From Escherichia phage JK1, in sequence record MZ436830.1: a stretch of 64,000 bases of DNA. One strand, 5' to 3'. Of the stretch, positions 6,083 through 62,338 are shown piece by piece. The notes under the pieces were generated by a model. The model searched no databases and was not told where the DNA came from. It saw nothing but the letters and a program-made list of their open reading frames with translations. How positions within the stretch are numbered: position 1 is the stretch's first letter; every line of letters begins with the position of its first letter. Position numbers and translations under genes: made by a program.

Positions 6083-6160
6083 TTTATTCTCCAAGTTGTT
6101 TTCTGTATCAGTAGTTGATATTGATATAGTACCATAATCAACTACTGATGTATATAGTTT
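6083..6160 (-). repeat. promoter/5'-UTR cassette, copy A (contains 13-bp perfect inverted repeat)
   Basis: shares ttttattctccaa...gtatcagtagttgata..tatagtacca with 25292-25380 and 51712-51790. Confidence 0.6.
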
Positions 6161-6181
6161 TATGAAAAAAAAATTTAAACT

Positions 6182-16404: not shown

Positions 16405-16605
16405 ATGGTACAAAAATTAATGGCACTTGTTAATGCCATAAAAGGTAATAAAAAACGTATAGCTTTTACTATTTCTGCTACGGTAGGAATTTTACTCTGG
16501 AATTTTGTTTTATCACCAATTGCTATTGCTCATGGTGTTAATATTCCAGTAATTACTCTTGATACATTCGTAGATTTATCATTTGCTTTGGTTGGGTTAA
16601 TTTAA
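16405..16605 (+). CDS. small hydrophobic membrane protein (plus strand)
   Basis: 66 aa; perfect SD AAGGAGG 6 nt before ATG; convergent with gene 61. Confidence 0.45.
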   Translation: MVQKLMALVNAIKGNKKRIAFTISATVGILLWNFVLSPIAIAHGVNIPVITLDTFVDLSFALVGLI

Positions 16606-17630
16606 ATCTTAGCATATTTAGATAGCCGCATTTTAGCCATCAACCCTTGGGCAATATTATTTTTCATATATTCCATAATTTGTTCAGGGGTTGCACCTTC
16701 CTTTCTAATCATATCATTAACATCTTTTGATTTCCAGGGAGATTTATCCCAAAACATAACCCTTTCTCCTGCATCAACTAATTTAGTCATTCGCTTAATA
16801 GTGTCAGGATGACGAGGTTCATTATCTAAAACCCACACTCGTCTATCTTTAAATGGAACAACTTCTAGGTCTAATTGACCACCCGTAATAGCTATACCAT
16901 TTTCAATAAAAAGTGAATCTATAGGTCCTTCTAGAACATATACATCACCATCTTTAACTCGTTCGACTCCATAGATTTTTGTTGCTTCAGGATAAGCTTT
17001 GATGGTGATATATTTTTGAGGAGCATCTTTCTTTAATGCACGTCCTTGAAAAGACTCAGCTTTTCCATTAGCATTATAAATTGGAATAACAAGACGAGGC
17101 TCAGGTATTTCCTTTTTATATGTTCCCGGTGCTATGCTATTAACTAATTTAGGCCATTCGGTTGTAAACCAAAGATATTTCCATTTATCCTTTGGAATAC
17201 AACGAGCTTTTACATATTTTATAATTGGATGGTCTTCCGCCAATTTATCTAATCTAACACATGACGGAAGAGATTTAATTATTTTCTTTTCAGGTTGTTT
17301 AGGAAGTTCTTTAGGTTTTTCTACTGGACGACTTTTACCTTTTTCTTTTCTTATTTCAAAGATATACTCACGATATAAATCAGGTTCAAACTCCTTTAAA
17401 TATATTCCTATCGGTGCATGATAGTTACAGTTATAACAATGAATATTTCCTTCATTATTATCACCATAATACCATCCACGGGCTTTATTCTGGTCGGTTT
17501 TTGAATCTCCGCAAACAGGGCATCTAAACCGCAATTTAAAAGTTGAACTATTATTTACTTGTGTGAATTTAGGTAAATGAGCTAATGCACGGTATGCAAA
17601 CTCATTATCAATCCAAGGTATTGATGACAT
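16602..17630 (-). CDS. 61: DNA primase
   Basis: 342 aa; N-terminal zinc ribbon CPVCGD...CYNC and TOPRIM-type core. Confidence 0.9.
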   Translation of the reverse strand: MSSIPWIDNEFAYRALAHLPKFTQVNNSSTFKLRFRCPVCGDSKTDQNKARGWYYGDNNEGNIHCYNCNYHAPIGIYLKEFEPDLYREYIFEIRKEKGKSRPVEKPKELPKQPEKKIIKSLPSCVRLDKLAEDHPIIKYVKARCIPKDKWKYLWFTTEWPKLVNSIAPGTYKKEIPEPRLVIPIYNANGKAESFQGRALKKDAPQKYITIKAYPEATKIYGVERVKDGDVYVLEGPIDSLFIENGIAITGGQLDLEVVPFKDRRVWVLDNEPRHPDTIKRMTKLVDAGERVMFWDKSPWKSKDVNDMIRKEGATPEQIMEYMKNNIAQGLMAKMRLSKYAKI

Positions 17631-17632
17631 TT

Positions 17633-17797
17633 TTACTCTTCTTTTTCTTTAGATTCCTCTTTTTTCTTTTTAGGAATCTGTTCAGGACCTTTATTTACTA
17701 CAGCACCTGACGTTGTTCCAGTAGAGATATTTTCAGGATTACCACCTGAATCTCCAGCGACCATATCTTCTTTAATAAATTCTTTATATGTTTTCAT
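17633..17797 (-). CDS. small protein with CTS-like N-terminus MKTYKEFI
   Basis: 54-codon ORF below track cutoff; TAAtATG coupling with upstream gene. Confidence 0.35.
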   Translation of the reverse strand: MKTYKEFIKEDMVAGDSGGNPENISTGTTSGAVVNKGPEQIPKKKKEESKEKEE

Positions 17798-17842
17798 ATT
17801 AACCTCTATTCATAAAAGCATTAAAAATTTGGTCATCAATAG
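17795..17842 (-). repeat. 48-bp direct repeat spanning a gene junction (copy 1)
   Basis: 45/48 identical to 18153-18200. Confidence 0.6.
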
Positions 17843-18155
17843 ATGGCGCAGTAATATTTTCTGCATCATTTAGCAAATCATTAATTTCATCAGATAGCAT
17901 AACACATGTACCTTTATTTCCTGTAATTGTTACTGCACAATTACGAACGTTTTCTTTATCAAATTTTAGGTTAATATTTTCGTAGTGAAAATCCTTTAAT
18001 GCCGAATATATCTTTAAAATGAAATTGTCTTTTACTACAATAAACCCAACCTCACTATTAAAACGCGGTTCATGGAAACTGTAATAAACCTTTTCATCTA
18101 TAAAATCGTATGAAATTTTTTCCATTTTTAAATATGAAAATTCAGAACTATACAT
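17799..18155 (-). CDS. hypothetical protein (C-terminal IDDQIFNAFMNRG tail)
   Basis: 118-aa ORF. Confidence 0.5.
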   Translation of the reverse strand: MYSSEFSYLKMEKISYDFIDEKVYYSFHEPRFNSEVGFIVVKDNFILKIYSALKDFHYENINLKFDKENVRNCAVTITGNKGTCVMLSDEINDLLNDAENITAPSIDDQIFNAFMNRG

Positions 18156-18200
18156 ATTAACCTTTATTCATAAAAGCATTAAAAATTTGATCGTCAATAG
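18153..18200 (-). repeat. 48-bp direct repeat spanning a gene junction (copy 2)
   Basis: 45/48 identical to 17795-17842. Confidence 0.6.
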
Positions 18201-18789
18201 AAACTTTTACTTTAGGCTGTTCTTCAAACGGTAATTCATATCCACATATTACAATTTTGTGATCGATACCAAAATACACAGAAGCAATATTATTAATATT
18301 ATTTTCAGTGAAATCTAAATCAACATCAATATCTTTTTGACTAACGCTCAAAGGATAATTAATACGAATAATTCGATTATCTTTAACAAAGATTCCACCG
18401 ACATACTCTGTGCTGCGTTTAAAGTTTACACGTTTCCTAAATGAAAAATATTCAGGTTCTTTATGGGCTCGACTCATAGGGCTTAAAGTGTATTCCGAAT
18501 ATGAAATATCAAATCCTACACCTTCAATATGAGCCAAAGTATCATGATTAAACCAATTATAATCGTATGCCAAATCCATTAAATTGTAATATGTGAAAGG
18601 CACCGGATTAACATCATATGTTGTACCTTTAAAATCTGCCCAGGCAACGATTTCGTTATCTTTAACAATTACAAAAATTGTGCCAATAAGATATCCACGG
18701 TTATTTTCATCAGGTGTTATATTATAACATTGTGCATCAGGAAATTTACCGTATTTAAACGGTGGATTTTTGTGCATATAATAAATCAT
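18157..18789 (-). CDS. hypothetical protein (C-terminal IDDQIFNAFMNKG tail)
   Basis: 210-aa ORF. Confidence 0.5.
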   Translation of the reverse strand: MIYYMHKNPPFKYGKFPDAQCYNITPDENNRGYLIGTIFVIVKDNEIVAWADFKGTTYDVNPVPFTYYNLMDLAYDYNWFNHDTLAHIEGVGFDISYSEYTLSPMSRAHKEPEYFSFRKRVNFKRSTEYVGGIFVKDNRIIRINYPLSVSQKDIDVDLDFTENNINNIASVYFGIDHKIVICGYELPFEEQPKVKVSIDDQIFNAFMNKG

Positions 18790-18790
18790 A

Positions 18791-19084
18791 TTATTCGCCT
18801 GTGATTTCGGTTACGATATTTTTGTTATTAAAGTTTTTATCGCAATACAGAACATAATTATACTGCATTACACCACCAGACTTAAGCTGTTTTTGCACTT
18901 CAGCTTTCATTTCAGGACGATCGCGCTCAACGATATTCATAATATCTGCTTCAATTTGAGTTTCAACTTCAGTCTGATCCGCAGTCATAGACCATTCACA
19001 CAAATCTTTATCATAACCTGCCATAGCAGGCTGAGCAGCACAAGAAGCTAAAGCAAAAATTGTAGCAAAGATAAATTTTTTCAT
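18791..19084 (-). CDS. secreted 97-aa protein (spackle/Sp-like by size, signal peptide and position)
   Basis: cleavable signal peptide ...AQPAMA; 97 aa. Confidence 0.5.
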   Translation of the reverse strand: MKKFIFATIFALASCAAQPAMAGYDKDLCEWSMTADQTEVETQIEADIMNIVERDRPEMKAEVQKQLKSGGVMQYNYVLYCDKNFNNKNIVTEITGE

Positions 19085-19144
19085 GATAATCTCCTCAGTA
19101 GTTTATGTTTATATAGTATCTCAATTTCCAACAAAAGTAAACAG

Positions 19145-19402
19145 TTATTTTAAAACTTCTGCGTAATCACATGTTACAAACTGTTTCTCTAGCTTAACGA
19201 TCTTACGAAAATACCTTTTACACTGACGAATCTGTCGCTTCGTAGGACGTACAGCAAACTTAATAAATTCCACTCGACCAAATGGAGGACTTTCTTCTGC
19301 TGGAATATCTAACACCAATTCCCATGTATCTGCAATAAGTGCTTTGAATTGCGTATTTTTCCTGACGTTATACGGAGTAGGTTTAAATAAAACAATATGC
19401 AT
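19145..19402 (-). CDS. hypothetical protein
   Basis: start trimmed to ATG with GAGGA SD. Confidence 0.45.
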   Translation of the reverse strand: MHIVLFKPTPYNVRKNTQFKALIADTWELVLDIPAEESPPFGRVEFIKFAVRPTKRQIRQCKRYFRKIVKLEKQFVTCDYAEVLK

Positions 19403-19403
19403 A

Positions 19404-19586
19404 TTATCCTCGGCAATCCACTTCACATACTTTCTTGTCATCAATGAAAGCTTTAACTAATGCTTTATTAACTTCAGCATACTGAGTAGTAGCCCATTGA
19501 ACGTCATCTTTCATCATTGTGGTTTCTTTAGTAAACATGCTTTCATTCTTAAACCACCCCATAAAAACTACCTTTACCAATTCCAT
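19404..19586 (-). CDS. dmd: Dmd-like antitoxin (discriminator of mRNA degradation)
   Basis: 60-aa ORF immediately downstream of gene 41 with its own early promoter; sequence matches my recollection of Dmd. Confidence 0.6.
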   Translation of the reverse strand: MELVKVVFMGWFKNESMFTKETTMMKDDVQWATTQYAEVNKALVKAFIDDKKVCEVDCRG

Positions 19587-19615
19587 AACAATCTCCTCAT
19601 TTAACCAACAAGACT

Positions 19616-19645
19616 ACTATACCATAGTCTCGTCAGCTTGTAAAC
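19616..19645 (-). promoter_or_regulatory. early promoter upstream of dmd
   Basis: GTTTAC-N18-TGGTATAGT. Confidence 0.55.
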
Positions 19646-21072
19646 TAAAATTTTAATTCATTCGCCAAAGCATCTAACTGAGCTCGAGTGGATTCATTTC
19701 TTTGATAGCGATTCTGCTCAGCCTGAATCTGTTGTGAACCTGCTACTTCACTCACTTCAGTTGGAGTAGAATCTTGTTCGATTTCTACCCATTTCTGATT
19801 TCCCTTTTGAACACCCATCAAAAACTTATTCCATTTATTTTTATCACCATATCGTGATTTGATTTGCTTAATGAGTTGTTGTTCAGCAGCTGCTAACTCC
19901 TCGGTTTCAATGACCGCAAGCATAAAATCGGCTGTTGCTGGAAGACCGGCAGATTCTGCAATATCGCTCATGTTAACATCGGAAGAGTCCCAAGCTTGTT
20001 TACCAACCTGTGCTGCAGTCCAAAGAACAGTTTCGGTTTCAACAGCAAGAGCACGCAATTCCTCTGCAATAGCTTTAACAGTTGTGTAACTATTTTCTGA
20101 ATAAACTCTAATGCGGCAAGATTTACAAATACCCAGATAGTCGACAATAATGATTGTTGGAACAAAATTCTTCTTAAGCTTCAATTCGTTTAAAAGTGAT
20201 CGAAATGTATTAGCATCTGCTCCACCAGTAGGATACTGTTTAACGATTAAACGACCGAGAGTAGATTTCTCGCGCCATTTTTCCATTTTTCCTTTATACT
20301 CAGCGTAAGAAATATGCCCATCATCAATGTCATCAAGAGAAACATCAAGCATATTAGCATCAATACGTTTAGCACAGACTTCTTCTGCCATTTCCATGGA
20401 AATGTAAAGAACATTATGTCCGAGCTGTAAATAATCTGCTGCTAATGAACACAATCCTAATGACTTACCAACGTTAACGCCAGCCATTAAAACGTTCAGT
20501 GTTCCAGTCTCAGCTCCGCCTTTAGTAATTTTATTTAGAATTCTGAGTTTAAATGGAACTTTACGAGCTTTATTCATATAAGATAGCCAGCGTGCTTCGT
20601 AGTCATCCATCCAATCATGACCAACGTAGCTATCAAATGAAATTGATAATGCTTGGCGCATGATGTCAGGAATAGCACCAACATCCGGCATTTTCTTATT
20701 TCGTTTTTCCGGAGGAAGCTCAGCATTAGTTTGAATTTCGATTATTTTAGACGTAGCATTAAACATCGCCCTTTGCTGAACATATTTTTCTGTTTCTTTT
20801 ACTAACCAGCTGTGGTCTTCTGGAGAATCAGCCAGTTTTGAAATAAGTGTTTTTACACCAGAATATTCTGTTTCAGTAAATGAACTATTTTCTAATGCAA
20901 CATTTAACGCATTAATAGATGGAACGCTATGGTACTCATTAACATGAGATTTAATTAATTTGAATGTATTTTTAGCTGGACCACTTTCAAAATATTCTGA
21001 ATCCATATATGGCCAAACTTTTGAAAAATAAGCTTGATCAAATATAAGATGAGAAAGAATAATTTCTACCAC
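19645..21072 (-). CDS. 41: replicative DNA helicase (DnaB-like)
   Basis: 475 aa; Walker A GVNVGKS. Confidence 0.9.
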   Translation of the reverse strand: MVEIILSHLIFDQAYFSKVWPYMDSEYFESGPAKNTFKLIKSHVNEYHSVPSINALNVALENSSFTETEYSGVKTLISKLADSPEDHSWLVKETEKYVQQRAMFNATSKIIEIQTNAELPPEKRNKKMPDVGAIPDIMRQALSISFDSYVGHDWMDDYEARWLSYMNKARKVPFKLRILNKITKGGAETGTLNVLMAGVNVGKSLGLCSLAADYLQLGHNVLYISMEMAEEVCAKRIDANMLDVSLDDIDDGHISYAEYKGKMEKWREKSTLGRLIVKQYPTGGADANTFRSLLNELKLKKNFVPTIIIVDYLGICKSCRIRVYSENSYTTVKAIAEELRALAVETETVLWTAAQVGKQAWDSSDVNMSDIAESAGLPATADFMLAVIETEELAAAEQQLIKQIKSRYGDKNKWNKFLMGVQKGNQKWVEIEQDSTPTEVSEVAGSQQIQAEQNRYQRNESTRAQLDALANELKF

Positions 21073-25291: not shown

Positions 25292-25380
25292 TTTATTCTC
25301 CAAATCTGTATCAGTAGTTGATAGTTGTATAGTACCATGGAAGAACAGTCTTGTAAACAGTTTTGTGAAAATTTTTTAGG
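25292..25380 (-). repeat. promoter/5'-UTR cassette, copy B
   Basis: near-identical to copy C apart from a 14-bp variable core; includes GTTTAC and TACTAT. Confidence 0.6.
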
Positions 25381-25474: not shown

Positions 25475-28171
25475 TCAGCCAAACAGGAAGTCTAACGAAG
25501 CTTTTTCTTCATAGTCCATACCAGCCGATTCACACATGCCTGCAAGCGGTTTAACAAACGATTTTTGGAACAAAGTTGAGTAGTCAATCCAAGACAGTAC
25601 GTCAGAACGAATTTCTTTTGGAAGTTCTGTACCCGACGGCCAAGCAATGCATTTGTCACCAAATGGATTTCCTTCACGCAATGGAAGAACCATTACTTTA
25701 TTTCCATCCAAAATTGGAGCTACACCTAAACCGCTAACAGCTCGACGATAAGTTAGCACACCACGAATATGGAACGGACATTTAAATCCTGGCCAACCTT
25801 TATCATCATATTTCGCTATATCGTTCGCAGTTTTTACTTCAGCAATAACTTTATAGTCAAGTTGACGATATTCTTTCTCGAAGTTCTTGTAATATTCTTG
25901 GACAGACTCTTCACCTTCCTGAAGAATACGACGAATACTTTCTTCGAGAGCTTCTTGGACCGCTTTAGGCGTTGAACTCTGCTGAGTTTCCATACCCATG
26001 ATTTTTAGATGCGGTTCAGCAAATCGCTTATCTTCCATATCATAAACGTTCAGAGCATAACGCTTTTTCGCTTTCCAAAATCCACCAACGCCCTTTGAAC
26101 CAAGTGGAGGGCAAGAAATAGCTTCACGGTCCATATGCATCAGATGCTCGCGGTTATTCATATAATCACATAACTCACGATATGCAACATCAATCATAGG
26201 TTCCATCTTTTTCTTACCGAACTGATTCATGAATTCAACTAAATCGTTCTGCTCTTTGAATCGGTCAAGACCAACTTTTTCAATAACTTTATCTACACAA
26301 ACATATACCGAATCAGTATCACCTGCTGCGATGAAATCTTCGCCATTAGTTCCGCATACTTTATTCAGATATTCATTAATTTTACGAGCAATCCACTGAA
26401 TACCAACTTGGCCGAAAATTGTGATAGCAGTAGCATTTCGCAAATCATAGTAACGGAAATGAATATTACCAAGAGCACCGTAAAGGCTGTTAATAAGAAT
26501 TTTACGGTTCAGCTGATTTGTATTAGCAAGTGTAGCCGCTTTTTCACATTCTTCAATCAAACTATTGAGAACAGATTCAGTATAATTCGATAGTTCATTT
26601 AAGAAATCATCACTGAACTTAACATATCGTTCAACTTCAGGTTTAGTTGAACAAGACCCTGCGCCTTTCATAATAATCTTTTTAATAGCTTCGGCATTCA
26701 TTTCTTCAGCGAACATTTTCTTTTTCCAATCTTTACGCTGGAAAAATACTTTAGCGATTTCCTTTGGAATGATACCTTCTTGATGCTTATCATACATCCA
26801 TCCATTCGGAGAACAAGAATATTCATCACTCGGTTTAGGAGCTGTTCCTGCGATATATTCATGAATTGGATGAACTTTAAACTGACCACGAATAGTCTCA
26901 GGACTAATGTTAACCTGACGAATAATGCTCGGATACAGAGACGTCAAGTCAAAACTCATAATATATCGACGAGCAATTGGTTTAGGTTCAAATACGAATG
27001 CACCCGGAAAACTCTGTTTAACGTGCGAACCTTGTTGAGGAATAACCTTATGTTCACCTTTCAATGAGTTAAAAATAATGGCATCCCAGGTTTTAATAGG
27101 ACTCATTACACCAGAAAAAGGCATTTTAGCGTAATAAGACATACTTAAAACTAGATCGATAAACCCGCGAATTTTATCAATTGCTTGAACTGATTCTACG
27201 TCAATGATGTTATAACTAATGTATCGTTGATGATTAGTCTCACGAAGTTTATTAATAGGACCGTCGTATGGTAATTTACCTTTTTTGGTTTCATGTTGAG
27301 CAACTGATTCCAAAGAGAATGACGGCAAATTAGTAAAAGCGAATTTCTTGTACAAATCTAAATAATCAAGAATAGATACGCCATCAATAGAATAAATTTC
27401 TTTGCTGCCGTACATATTTTGAATTAGTTTGGATTTTACCCGACCGATTGGAGAGAAACGTTTCATACTGCGTTCACCTAGAATCATTTTAACACGATTC
27501 ATGATATATGGAACGTCAAACCCCTCAATATTCCAACCAGTAAAAATAGCAGGTCGTTTCTGTTCCCAGAGATTGATATATTCCATGAGCATATCACGCT
27601 CATTATCGAATGGCATATAAATTACTCGGTCAAGAATTTCTTGAGGAACTTCATCACCACCTTCACAGTCAAGCTTAGCAGCTAACTTTGCATCCCATTT
27701 TGATACTGAACCATACATTGAATTCAAAAGGTCGAAAACATAAAAACGATCATCAATTGAATCGTAATGAGTGATAGCATCAATTTCATATTCAGCTTTC
27801 ATTGGGTCAGGAAATTTATCACCAGTAACCTCAATGTCACAGTTAGCTACACGAACAAATTTTCGGTCATAAACAATTTCTGAACCGTATGTATCACTGA
27901 TATAAGCGAGTTTAAAATCGTTCATACCGAGAGCTTCGAGACCGATGTCTTCCATTCGTTTCATCCAATCTCGAGCATCTTTCATTGATGGAAATTTTTG
28001 AGGAGCACAATTTTTACCATAGATGTCTTTGTACTTTGACTCTTCCTTACAATGCCTAAACATAGTTGGAAGATATTCTACTTCACGAGTACGTTCCTTT
28101 CCATTTTCATCAATATAACGTTCAACAATATTATTTCCGACTGTTTCAATAGAGATATAAAATTCTTTCAT
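25475..28171 (-). CDS. 43: DNA polymerase (family B)
   Basis: 898 aa; exonuclease and polymerase motifs incl. YGDTDS. Confidence 0.95.
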   Translation of the reverse strand: MKEFYISIETVGNNIVERYIDENGKERTREVEYLPTMFRHCKEESKYKDIYGKNCAPQKFPSMKDARDWMKRMEDIGLEALGMNDFKLAYISDTYGSEIVYDRKFVRVANCDIEVTGDKFPDPMKAEYEIDAITHYDSIDDRFYVFDLLNSMYGSVSKWDAKLAAKLDCEGGDEVPQEILDRVIYMPFDNERDMLMEYINLWEQKRPAIFTGWNIEGFDVPYIMNRVKMILGERSMKRFSPIGRVKSKLIQNMYGSKEIYSIDGVSILDYLDLYKKFAFTNLPSFSLESVAQHETKKGKLPYDGPINKLRETNHQRYISYNIIDVESVQAIDKIRGFIDLVLSMSYYAKMPFSGVMSPIKTWDAIIFNSLKGEHKVIPQQGSHVKQSFPGAFVFEPKPIARRYIMSFDLTSLYPSIIRQVNISPETIRGQFKVHPIHEYIAGTAPKPSDEYSCSPNGWMYDKHQEGIIPKEIAKVFFQRKDWKKKMFAEEMNAEAIKKIIMKGAGSCSTKPEVERYVKFSDDFLNELSNYTESVLNSLIEECEKAATLANTNQLNRKILINSLYGALGNIHFRYYDLRNATAITIFGQVGIQWIARKINEYLNKVCGTNGEDFIAAGDTDSVYVCVDKVIEKVGLDRFKEQNDLVEFMNQFGKKKMEPMIDVAYRELCDYMNNREHLMHMDREAISCPPLGSKGVGGFWKAKKRYALNVYDMEDKRFAEPHLKIMGMETQQSSTPKAVQEALEESIRRILQEGEESVQEYYKNFEKEYRQLDYKVIAEVKTANDIAKYDDKGWPGFKCPFHIRGVLTYRRAVSGLGVAPILDGNKVMVLPLREGNPFGDKCIAWPSGTELPKEIRSDVLSWIDYSTLFQKSFVKPLAGMCESAGMDYEEKASLDFLFG

Positions 28172-37088: not shown

Positions 37089-37307
37089 TTATTTCTCTAA
37101 TATAAAATAAAAATCATCATCTGTCAAATGATACCTGTAATTTAATTCTACACCATTAGATTTAAAAGCGGTATCATACGGATTTTCTGGATCAATATCA
37201 ATGTCAAGAGCTAAAACTTCCCTGAGATACATTTTAAGTAAATAGGGAATAGCTTCAACTTCAGGTATTTCTTCCAAGAATCCGGAGAGGTTAATCGTTA
37301 GCCTCAT
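37089..37307 (-). CDS. small hypothetical protein
   Basis: 72-aa ORF. Confidence 0.45.
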
Positions 37308-37854
37308 ATAAAAAATCCAAACTAGGAGAATCGTCTACAACACTTTTCTTTTCAGCCCCCGGTGTTCTATAGGTTGATTCTTCGTAATGCGTCATTTTAT
37401 CGTAGATGTCTTGAATAAAAGTTTCATCTACTAACGCAACCATATCGTCGTCACGACTGTCATAGACATTGTGAACGAAGTAACTATATTTCTTTGCAAC
37501 TTCCTTACGTTCTTTTTTAATACGCTGGACGAATGCATTAAAACAAGCTTGAGTTATATACGCATGTGGGTTTTTATATTTCGTTTCATCAAAATTATGA
37601 AGCCCCTTAATAGAAGCTTCTATACCATCTGCAATCATTTCTTGTTTCCAAGACTGGGTGTATCCTGAAAAGTTGAAACGTTTAGATAAGCCTTCTGCAA
37701 TAAGCATAATGGCTAATCCGATAGTATCATTTTGACGAACTACTTTATTTGGGTCTTTATTATTTGCTAATTCTGTTTTCCAATCAATAATAGCTTGTAA
37801 AAGCTCTTTATTGTTTACGTAATTATATTTAGGCTTAGTTTCTGACATTTTCAC
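37291..37854 (-). CDS. 55: late-transcription sigma factor
   Basis: 187 aa, recognised sequence. Confidence 0.85.
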
Positions 37855-47331: not shown

Positions 47332-47361
47332 ATTATACCACATCCTTGTGGCAAAGTAAAC
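47332..47361 (-). promoter_or_regulatory. early promoter, near-identical copy of the 2429-2458 promoter
   Basis: GTTTAC-N18-TGGTATAAT. Confidence 0.55.
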
Positions 47362-48383
47362 TAGTTCAGTGCATTTAGTGCATTGTTCAGTTTAGAACGT
47401 TGCTTCGTGAGATTTTTGACTTTTTCTTGAGCTTTTTCTAGCATCTTTTCAGCTTCTAACACTTCATTAGTTGCTTTAACGAGTTCATCATCTACTGCCT
47501 TGATAGACTTCTCAATCGCATGTGCATGCCATTTTTCAACAGGTTTAAGACTCGGATTTTCAATAGGAAGAAAATTCACTTTATTGAATTTCCATGCATC
47601 CTTATTACCTGAACTATACATCCAAAATTTAGGATCGTTTGATAAGTAATTAGATAAATTTAAGTTATCTTGCACTTCTTGCTTTTTCTCTTGCGTAACT
47701 TCGTCCTTTCTCAAAAAATCGTATTTAAATGAAACGATCATATCAAGTTCATATGTTGTTGTGTCTAATTTAAATCGTTCGAAATGCTGTGAAATCTTAG
47801 ACTGAACTGCAGCAACAACATCCATATACTTAAATGCTTCTGTCAACTGCGATTTAAGGCATTCGCAAATTGAAAGAGAATTTTTTGTATTAGGTTTAAA
47901 GCTAATTCGTGCAGTTCTATTATTTTCTTTTAATGGTCTTACTTCCATCTGAAGAGTATAACCATCAAATTTCAGGTTCTTTAAGTTAATGTCAGAACCT
48001 TTTAATCGACTAGCCGTCGACAAAATTTGCTTTAATTGTTTACGGAATAGAGCAATAAATCTCCATTCAATACGATAATGATTTGGATTGAAAAATCCAG
48101 ATGATAAATCAACCTTACTCTGACCAACACCTTGAACAAATAGAGGATTTTTATAATCAATAGTTTTACAGAAATCGGTGAGCTGCTCACGAGCAGTCAT
48201 TTGTGTAATATACCCCGCTTTACTAAAATGACGTAACCATTCACTGCTATTCAGATGTTTAAAGGCGTGAATGGAACAATTAACTTTACCAAGGTCTAAA
48301 TTATTTTCGCACAAAAATGTCATAGCATCACGAGTATAGCTGGCATTACGAACCATATCTTCAATTTGAGAACGAGTTTTCAT
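47361..48383 (-). CDS. hypothetical protein with C-terminal coiled coil (family member 3)
   Basis: 340-aa ORF. Confidence 0.5.
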   Translation of the reverse strand: MKTRSQIEDMVRNASYTRDAMTFLCENNLDLGKVNCSIHAFKHLNSSEWLRHFSKAGYITQMTAREQLTDFCKTIDYKNPLFVQGVGQSKVDLSSGFFNPNHYRIEWRFIALFRKQLKQILSTASRLKGSDINLKNLKFDGYTLQMEVRPLKENNRTARISFKPNTKNSLSICECLKSQLTEAFKYMDVVAAVQSKISQHFERFKLDTTTYELDMIVSFKYDFLRKDEVTQEKKQEVQDNLNLSNYLSNDPKFWMYSSGNKDAWKFNKVNFLPIENPSLKPVEKWHAHAIEKSIKAVDDELVKATNEVLEAEKMLEKAQEKVKNLTKQRSKLNNALNALN

Positions 48384-50278: not shown

Positions 50279-50338
50279 TTTCTGTTCCTCCGTAGTTGAT
50301 AGTTGTATAATACCACAGAGGAACAGTCTTGTAAACCA

Positions 50339-50641
50339 CTAAAAGAAACTTCTTTCACAATTTTTTCCACTGAACCAAGCGCTCACTGCTTTCTTAGTCT
50401 CAGGAGCAGTGTTATCCATAAACCATTCAAAGGCAGCCTTTTTATGATTCTGGAGGGCTTCTCGGGCTTTAATCTGTTCACGGTCTATTAACACTAACAT
50501 ATGAGCCTTTCTTGTCACCAAGGGCTTCTTATGATTTTTTGAATACTCCCAATCATTTGTCCATCGCATCGTTGTTGCGAACTGAAATACTGCTTCTTTA
50601 ATTTTAGTTTCGTAAATTTCACGAGCCTTTGAGTATAACAT
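50339..50641 (-). CDS. hypothetical protein
   Basis: start trimmed to ATG with GGAGG SD. Confidence 0.45.
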   Translation of the reverse strand: MLYSKAREIYETKIKEAVFQFATTMRWTNDWEYSKNHKKPLVTRKAHMLVLIDREQIKAREALQNHKKAAFEWFMDNTAPETKKAVSAWFSGKNCERSFF

Positions 50642-51711: not shown

Positions 51712-51790
51712 TTTATTCTCCAAATCCGTATCAGTTGATAGTTGTATAGTACCATAAAGCTTTATGCTTGTAAACAGTTTTGTGAAAAAT
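51712..51790 (-). repeat. promoter/5'-UTR cassette, copy C
   Basis: near-identical to copy B. Confidence 0.6.
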
Positions 51791-51799
51791 TTTTGAAAT

Positions 51800-61864: not shown

Positions 61865-62338
61865 TTATTTGAACGATTTAACGTACTGAATAGAACCTTT
61901 ACTATTCACAAAGGCAATTTTACCATTTTTATTATACATGGTAGCAGTACGTTGATAACCATAAGTTTGTTTACCAGATTGATAACCAACTAATGCGAAA
62001 TTATCTTCGCCCATTTTATTCTGTTTAGCGCGAATGCGTTCATGACCATGTGCCATAAGAACCTTAGCATCACCGGTTGCAATGGATCGACGAGTTTTTT
62101 CATCTTCAACTGTATTAACAAAGTCGTCAAATGAATCAAATTTAGCATGAGATTTATTATACAGTTTTCCATCTACTGCATAATTATATCCCTGTACATC
62201 CATCTCAACTTCTGTACCATCATCCAATACAGCAGTGATTTTTTGACCTTTTTTAAATTTCAAAAGATCAGTAAAAGATTCAGCAATAATTTGAGAATTA
62301 ATAGCTGCTTCAGTGATAAATTCTTGATATGTTTTCAT
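61865..62338 (-). CDS. internal protein with capsid-targeting sequence
   Basis: N-terminus MKTYQEFITEA typical of T-even internal protein CTS. Confidence 0.6.
   Translation of the reverse strand: MKTYQEFITEAAINSQIIAESFTDLLKFKKGQKITAVLDDGTEVEMDVQGYNYAVDGKLYNKSHAKFDSFDDFVNTVEDEKTRRSIATGDAKVLMAHGHERIRAKQNKMGEDNFALVGYQSGKQTYGYQRTATMYNKNGKIAFVNSKGSIQYVKSFK

Follow-up and report, generated by a model that had tools for sequence, protein, structure and literature searches.

The 64,000-nucleotide stretch of Escherichia phage JK1 analysed here (record MZ436830.1; the whole stretch is called the window) contains a direct repeat of 49 nt, whose two copies form the 3' ends of adfA (gene 61.2) and of a neighbouring 118-aa open reading frame (ORF), here called X. 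We consider it likely that this repeat is a shared 3' module of the AdfA/X gene family, which carries a promoter and bounds an exchangeable X cassette. The repeat itself, the paralogy of the two proteins, the coincidence of the promoter sequence with a site mapped in T4, and the cassette-shaped indels and mosaics among related phages are direct observations. All coordinates are those of the whole window, and the genes of the locus lie on the minus strand. In the 3 kb around the repeat, the nucleotide identity with Escherichia phage vB_EcoM_Lutter, the closest relative, is 98.8%, and the locus matches 665 phage records, almost all from Tequatrovirus or enterobacterial T4-like phages; judged by these matches, the window comes from a Tequatrovirus, that is, a T4-like phage.

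The direct-repeat search returned one direct repeat at this locus, with 46 of 49 positions identical and a spacing of 358 bp between the two copies (Table 1). An earlier note on this DNA had reported the same repeat short of one base, as 48 bp with 45 identities; what it said of the three ORFs (118 aa, 210 aa and the small one at 17633-17797) and of the content of each copy agrees with our reading of the sequence, in which the small ORF has 54 aa and starts with MKTYKEFIKE. Read on the minus strand, both copies have the sequence TCT ATT GAY GAY CAA ATT TTT AAT GCT TTT ATG AAT A(G/A)A GGT TAA T ATG, and each therefore contains the last 14 codons of a gene, coding for SIDDQIFNAFMN(R/K)G, the stop codon, one T and the ATG of the following gene. 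When adfA and X were aligned gene to gene, the nucleotide identity was about 25-55% upstream and 93-97% starting exactly at the Ser codon. Nine families of direct repeats of at least 30 nt are present in the whole window and, among those with two copies, the adfA/X family is the one with the most similar copies. Both copies are located at gene ends and in the same register, and the structure recurs in hundreds of public phage genomes; the repeat is not a product of chance. An artefact or a duplication introduced during assembly was ruled out by the presence of the repeat in hundreds of independent genomes. As for the other repeats, families D1-D4 (for example at 6108-6174, 25311-25377, 50289-50355, 51728-51794, 2429-2460 and 47332-47363) have the look of T4 early promoters on the opposite strand (GTTTAC ... 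TATAAT type). Nearly all the other repeats of at least 30 nt resemble such promoters, so that the repeated DNA of this genome looks mostly regulatory.

The earlier note, whose repeat is real and whose idea of recombination is taken up below, had missed both the identity of AdfA and the promoter, and had described the 118- and 210-aa proteins as otherwise unrelated. It had also named the finding that would count against its view, namely that the two tails are part of a longer homologous domain. This is what the Pfam, BLASTP and tail-trimmed comparisons gave: X and the C-terminal half of AdfA are paralogous, and the signal persists without the tail. In fact, the Pfam family AdfA (PF23813) recognises X with 31.9 bits against a gathering cut-off of 27 (E=1.1e-7), residues 22-118 of X aligning to profile positions 113-211. 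The same family is also precomputed on all the close relatives of X, and the PHROG cross-matches between X and AdfA are reciprocal. In BLASTP, X and AdfA share 37% identity over 106 aa (E=6e-11) and, after the last 14 residues had been removed from both proteins, 32% over 79 aa (E=1e-4). The tail-trimmed hhalign comparison gave a collinear alignment of 85 columns between X 3-91 and AdfA 97-186 (E=0.002). X does not share the two-half architecture of about 210 aa, inasmuch as it covers profile positions 113-211 only and the N-terminal half is absent. Taken together, these comparisons indicate an old paralogy, in which the single domain of X corresponds to the C-terminal half of AdfA. A weaker, second match of the tail-trimmed X profile was found on the N-terminal half of AdfA (E=0.009), which suggests that AdfA may itself be an internal duplication.

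Word-indexed protein searches returned close relatives only (5 for X and 16 for AdfA), and therefore no deep alignment is available for either protein. The exhaustive search with X among 1.84 billion representatives gave only 4 clusters, one of which is a probably spurious protein of 1267 aa; the X family is tiny, with three clusters. Foldseek searches against viral structures gave in-family matches only, which had poor TM-scores, were weak and reciprocal, and came from low-confidence models.

The T4 and RB69 gp61.2 is AdfA, which binds and neutralises the toxin DarT1; in the RB69 protein, His at residue 164 allows neutralisation of DarT1, whereas Arg, which is the RB69 wild-type residue, does not (PMC11257639). 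In AdfA from the window, the equivalent position is occupied by Asn (NINNIAS; codon 167, 18289-18291, minus strand). X also has Asn at the aligned residue (VRNCA vs. NINNIA), and not the His of the DarT1-neutralising alleles. With respect to AdfA, X corresponds to one half only (118 vs. about 210 aa) and has about 32% identity outside the tail; its activity is a candidate one. By kinship, X may be an anti-defence protein like AdfA.

A degenerate coding pattern of the tail was searched in related phage loci and, in the 25 gene copies examined, the tail was found at the end of the ORFs of AdfA, of X and of a third protein, here called Y. Its consensus, S[IV]DDQIFNAFM[NK][RK][GD], is almost invariant. 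Tail-bearing AdfA proteins (208-216 aa) occur in Tequatrovirus and RB69-like phages, tail-bearing X proteins (117-119 aa) in Tequatrovirus and Gaprivervirus, and tail-bearing Y proteins (about 145 aa, phrog_8539) in Gaprivervirus and relatives. At least three lineages of Tevenvirinae (Tequatrovirus, the Mosigvirus-like or RB69-like phages, and Gaprivervirus) carry the tail, which is always followed by stop-(T/A)-ATG of whichever gene comes next. Outside Tequatrovirus, synonymous sites vary (GCT/GCC/GCA, CAA/CAG, TTT/TTC, AGA/CGA) while the peptide is kept, which argues that the peptide is selected in its own right. The tail is predicted to be helical in the AlphaFold models of both X and AdfA. 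A homology of Y outside the tail was also considered; the tail-trimmed comparisons of Y with the N-terminal half of AdfA (E=0.067) and with X (E=0.17) were too weak for it to be claimed.

The repeat also coincides with a promoter. In T4, the MotA-dependent middle promoter P61 starts at position 19122 (Table 1 of PMC2988021, where it is credited to Marshall, Sharma and Hinton 1999). This position is the A of codon 3 of T4 gene 61.1 (18966-19130, minus strand), 8 nt inside the gene. The T4 sequence from -12 to -7 is TAATAT, in which the stop TAA of 61.2 is followed by a T and by the first two bases of the 61.1 ATG, and the MotA box TAATGCTTTT, encoded by the N-A-F codons, is found 12 nt upstream of it. 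The MotA box has the consensus (a/t)(a/t)(a/t)TGCTT(t/c)A and its centre near -30 (PMC2988021), and TAATGCTTTT matches it at 9 of 10 positions in both copies of the window. Both copies also have a sigma-70 -10 sequence of the TAnnnT type, TAATAT, after a spacer of 12 nt, within the 12 ± 1 bp below the box that is expected for this element. Since copy 1 is identical at 49 of 49 positions to the T4 adfA/61.1 junction, it is the P61 orthologue, with a putative start at A17789, in codon 3 of 61.1. The ATG of 61.1 belongs both to this copy and to the -10 element of P61. With respect to copy 1, copy 2 has identical box and -10 sequences and a single change in the spacer (AGAGG to AAAGG); we predict that it is an active promoter as well, with a start at about 18147-18149, in codon 3 of X.

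In the Lutter record, features labelled 'promoter' are annotated at both copies. The pattern TGCTTYW-N11-13-TANNNT, matched by both copies, occurs 24 times in the window as compared to 5.3 ± 2.6 times by chance, as estimated from shuffled sequences. From the MotA box to the ATG, all Tequatrovirus copies examined are invariant save two spacer sites, corresponding to K/R (A/G) and Gly/Asp (G/A), and the last two sense codons, AGA GGT, provide a GAGG Shine-Dalgarno sequence for the following gene. Compared with T4 P61, copy 1 consists of the same bases, with the same box, the 12-bp spacer and the -10 TAATAT; however, T4 has one copy and the window has two, the second of which is predicted to start transcription inside X. 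The window promoter lies wholly within coding sequence and the stop/start junction.

The earlier note had suggested recombination between the two junctions, and the comparison with related genomes bears this out. T4 and the window align with one gap only, whose length is exactly that of a repeat unit (358 bp, i.e. X plus one tail). When the window was compared with a relative (locus L004), the identity was 97-100% from adfA to the end of copy 2, dropped to 70-90% for the X body alone, and was again 95-100% from copy 1 on; therefore, a diverged X allele sits exactly between the repeats. In Gaprivervirus, one locus (L031) corresponds to another (L005) minus one 361-nt unit, located between gene Y upstream and a 73-aa ORF downstream, and thus the same cassette indel recurs in a different genus and context.

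T4 lacks X; T2 and RB32 have it, as do about 300 public records. Contiguous adfA-to-X junctions were found in 157 public records and contiguous sp-to-X junctions, typical of T2-like phages without adfA, in 141 records, while adfA is present alone in roughly 120 records (by subtraction). The T2-type junction keeps an 11-nt remnant of the tail (TAGAGGTTAGT) before X. The adfA gene is itself a mosaic: in the window its N-terminal half (MIYYMHKNPPFKYGKFPDAQCYNIT...) is of the RB69 type, whereas T4, CrRp10 and 'Some' have a different N-terminal half (MLYQMHKCKDTYKYKGAQCYIIN...) together with a similar C-terminal half. X is found with both T4-type and RB69-type adfA alleles, so the modules reassort. 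All adfA-only and X-only genomes examined have the X-type tail (GAT GAC ... AGA GGT), and the adfA tails of genomes containing both genes usually have AAA. This pattern would fit an ancestor containing both adfA and X that underwent a deletion, with the crossover in the 5' part of the repeat. A comparison with other T-even genomes, which the earlier note had proposed in search of single-copy ancestors, did give a single-copy genome, T4.

In the explanation that we propose, the repeat does more than one job. It codes for a near-invariant, predicted helical C-terminal peptide; its AGA GGT TAA T ATG sequence serves the next gene with a Shine-Dalgarno sequence and a start codon, and also contains the stop; and, in Tequatrovirus, it is the MotA/AsiA-dependent P61 as well, firing just inside 61.1 and driving the primase gene. 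Because the repeat copies are the sole near-identical stretch of DNA between the diverged paralogues, they could be used as crossover sites by the very active homologous recombination of the phage. By unequal exchange, exactly one unit, consisting of X and one tail, would be lost or gained; by double exchange, one X allele would be swapped for another. These exchanges would produce the three common types of locus, namely adfA only (T4), adfA plus X (window) and X only (T2). Presumably, the copies are kept alike by recombination and not solely by constraint, and the direction of each gain or loss can be assigned only tentatively.

Several points weigh against this proposal. The combined constraint on protein, ribosome-binding site and promoter could keep the copies nearly identical without ongoing gene conversion, and the tail has only about 13 synonymous sites, which makes for weak statistics. 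The K/R difference (AAA in the adfA tail and AGA in the X tail) is paralogue-specific in 4 of the 5 types of genome containing both genes, and therefore the copies are not fully homogenised. RB69-type AdfA has the same GAT GAC ... Arg, so that the T4 tail could be ancestral and not a deletion product. The promoter activity was mapped in T4 and not in the window phage, and the promoter role of copy 2 is a prediction only. The MotA box is not conserved outside Tequatrovirus (TGCC/TGCA), and therefore the promoter cannot explain the conservation of the tail in general. Finally, the signal between X and AdfA outside the tail is modest, the hhalign probability being 14%, a low value due to the shallow alignments, and the AlphaFold models have low confidence (pLDDT of 58 for X and 67 for AdfA).

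The same data could be read as ordinary paralogy only, the two genes being old tandem duplicates in which a peptide under strong purifying selection is written in AT-biased codons, with no recombination at the tail. The peptide is conserved over three families in three lineages, between which its codons differ synonymously, and the K/R difference between adfA and X tails persists in several genomes; both facts speak for this explanation. However, the Tequatrovirus copies share nearly all synonymous sites, while the adjoining codons are at 25-55% identity, with a sharp edge. Moreover, the body of X in the relative mentioned above is 10-30% diverged from that of the window while the tail and the sequence beyond are 95-100% identical, one-unit indels are found in two genera, and the T4 junction is identical at 49 of 49 positions to the X-type copy. 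Paralogy without recombination is, in our opinion, quite unlikely.

Constraint on the promoter alone, according to which the copies are kept for the MotA promoter and the ribosome-binding site and the peptide is a by-product, appears equally improbable. It is true that P61 maps inside the repeat, and that the Tequatrovirus copies do not vary in the box, the -10 and most of the spacer, but only in Asp wobbles and two spacer sites. However, conservation of the peptide is just as strong in Gaprivervirus and in RB69-like phages, which have a broken MotA box (TGCCTT, TGCATT) and, in some cases, a spoiled -10 (TGATAT, TAGTAT). The MotA box is preceded by the first third of the repeat (S-I-D-D-Q-I, on the 5' side), a region in which T4 middle promoters have no known element. 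The cassette-shaped indels would also be left unexplained.

Going beyond the module that we propose, the tail helix S[IV]DDQIFNAFM[NK]RG might be a portable docking or effector peptide, through which AdfA, X and Y address one common partner. X and Y would then represent undescribed anti-defence specificities, swapped as cassettes since the tail DNA doubles as recombination site and promoter. This idea is speculative and we give it little weight. The common partner could be a DarT-type toxin or a component of the replication fork, such as the gp45 clamp. The gp43 polymerase (25475-28171, minus strand), which ends with SLDFLFG, and gp55 (37291-37848, minus strand) are also encoded in the window; their C-termini, which we take to be clamp-binding tails, have only a loose resemblance to the SIDDQIF... 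tail.

The repeat can be compared to the promoter-early stem-loops (PeSLs), described as mobile regulatory cassettes in T4-type phages (Arbiol et al. 2010, PMC2839356; Comeau et al. 2014, PMC4122927). These are likewise short, conserved, promoter-bearing repeats at gene borders, which act as recombination sites for indels or replacements of small accessory genes, and in our case too the repeats coincide with the edges of indels and replacements between related genomes. However, the window repeat is made of a coding tail and a MotA-dependent middle promoter, and is not intergenic. A consensus scan found no match to a sigma-70 -35/-10 early promoter inside either copy, no terminator-like sites were found in 16500-19800, and the folding z-scores were -1.67 and +1.13. 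Membership of the PeSL class was rejected, given that neither a sigma-70 early promoter nor a stem-loop is present. A further likeness is with the shuffling of capsid-targeting sequences at T-even internal-protein loci (PMC3012670), where a short terminal coding segment is common to diverse small proteins; in the window, however, the segment is C-terminal, has no known cleavage and is carried by paralogous proteins.

The locus is a new example of the known modular evolution of phages, tidy but fairly ordinary, and it does not overturn the current understanding of T4-like genome evolution. It extends the principle of the regulatory cassette as a recombination handle, known from intergenic early-promoter stem-loops, to a middle promoter embedded in the coding tail of a gene. 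On the practical side, any deletion or recoding at the 3' end of either adfA or X also affects P61, as well as the ribosome-binding site and start codon of the following gene. In T4, the adfA deletion that has been published (61.2 delta 65-196) stops exactly before the tail: the last 12 codons, DDQIFNAFMNRG (61.2 codons 197-208; locus L002, about 2633-2668), are spared, and hence the P61 promoter is kept. T2 has been described as naturally without an adfA homologue (PMC11257639), and X is labelled 'gp61.2' in some records, among them one of T2 (MH751506; locus L039, 811-1167). Each of these statements is partly right, since X is a half-size paralogue of the AdfA family. T2-type phages carry this paralogue at the position of adfA, and it is a candidate for further anti-DarT or counter-defence specificities.

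On the minus strand, the order of the genes is 41 (helicase) - dmd - 61.4 - sp - adfA (61.2) - X - 61.1 - 61 (primase). T4 has an identical gene order at this locus, but without X. The features of the locus are listed in Table 1.

Table 1. Genes, repeat copies and promoters at the adfA/X locus of the window.
Feature	Position	Strand	Basis or content
Gene 61, DNA primase, 342 aa	16602-17630	minus	ORF; primase annotation in the matching Lutter and T4 records
Gene 61.1, 54 aa, MKTYKEFIKEDMVAGD...	17633-17797	minus	ORF; phrog_1823, E=7e-34; T4 gp61.1 at the same position
Repeat copy 1	17795-17843	minus	Last 14 codons of X (SIDDQIFNAFMNRG), stop TAA, T, ATG of 61.1
P61 orthologue	17796-17823	minus	MotA box TAATGCTTTT at 17823-17814; 12-nt spacer including the Shine-Dalgarno GAGG; -10 TAATAT at 17801-17796
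ORF X, 118 aa	17799-18155	minus	phrog_4122; single-domain paralogue of the AdfA C-terminal half
Repeat copy 2	18153-18201	minus	Last 14 codons of adfA (SIDDQIFNAFMNKG), stop TAA, T, ATG of X
Predicted P61-like middle promoter	18154-18181	minus	MotA box TAATGCTTTT at 18181-18172; 12-nt spacer; -10 TAATAT at 18159-18154
adfA (gene 61.2), anti-DarT factor A, 210 aa	18157-18789	minus	Pfam PF23813 over the full length, E=3e-139
sp (spackle)	18791-19084	minus	Pfam T4_Spackle, E=3.5e-45; upstream neighbour of adfA; directly precedes X in T2-like phages

Gene 61.1, whose start lies in copy 1, had attracted the attention of the earlier note for the resemblance of its N-terminus to a capsid-targeting sequence, and this resemblance holds. 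The prohead protease gp21 has (L/I)-x-E specificity, and the capsid-targeting consensus is MKTYQEFIAE. The first ten residues of gp61.1, MKTYKEFIKE, are a decapeptide of this kind, and their terminal I-K-E fits the protease motif. They match at 8 of 10 residues the leader MKTYQEFITE of an internal-protein-like gene, which codes for a 157-aa DUF7412 protein (61865-62338, minus strand) and adjoins denV-like and lysozyme genes; the DNA at the two gene starts is identical at 29 of 33 positions (88%, repeat family D7). A degenerate leader pattern found these two matches only in the window and none in shuffled sequence, and the junction [LIM]-x-E-[DN]-MVAGD is conserved among gp61.1 homologues. On these grounds, gp61.1 might be a capsid-targeted internal protein, cut by the prohead protease after I-K-E, whose 44-residue peptide is packaged and injected.

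We consider this highly unlikely. Gene 61.1 is a conserved ORF beside the primase gene across diverse T4-like genomes (PMC1524935), and this conservation contrasts with the high diversity of T-even internal proteins (PMC3012670). The N-termini of the homologues vary (MKTFKDFINE, MKSFKEVMNE), and the RB69-like phages have the homologous part at the C-terminal end of a 155-aa protein, whose own N-terminus is not of this kind. Moreover, the 61.1 ATG precedes the mapped P61 start, so that the N-terminus of gp61.1 is missing from whatever middle transcripts encode; this position would argue against a late supply of the full-length protein. All considered, the capsid-targeting function of gp61.1 appears doubtful. 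As for the rest of the protein, its conserved core starts from Met12 (MVAGDSGGNP...GPEQIPKKK), and in the RB69-like locus L013 (3079-3546) it forms the C-terminus of the 155-aa protein, which belongs to phrog_2086. The P61 start lies between Met1 and Met12, so that middle transcripts could encode the Met12 form only. Among the papers covered by the literature search, none was found to discuss gp61.1 or X.

Some details of the related loci deserve mention. In Escherichia phage Elenatom (locus L036, 268-890), adfA is frameshifted into two annotated ORFs and is an apparent pseudogene, while X and both tails are intact. In phage EAWsc9 (locus L040, 762-1569), Y is labelled 'serine/threonine protein kinase' and X 'DUF2528 domain-containing protein'; both labels are probably over-annotations, for which we saw no support. 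In phage HMD-9 (locus L038, 215-826), AdfA has 203 aa, owing to an in-frame loss of codons just upstream of the tail, and is annotated as 'putative major capsid protein', evidently a mis-annotation.

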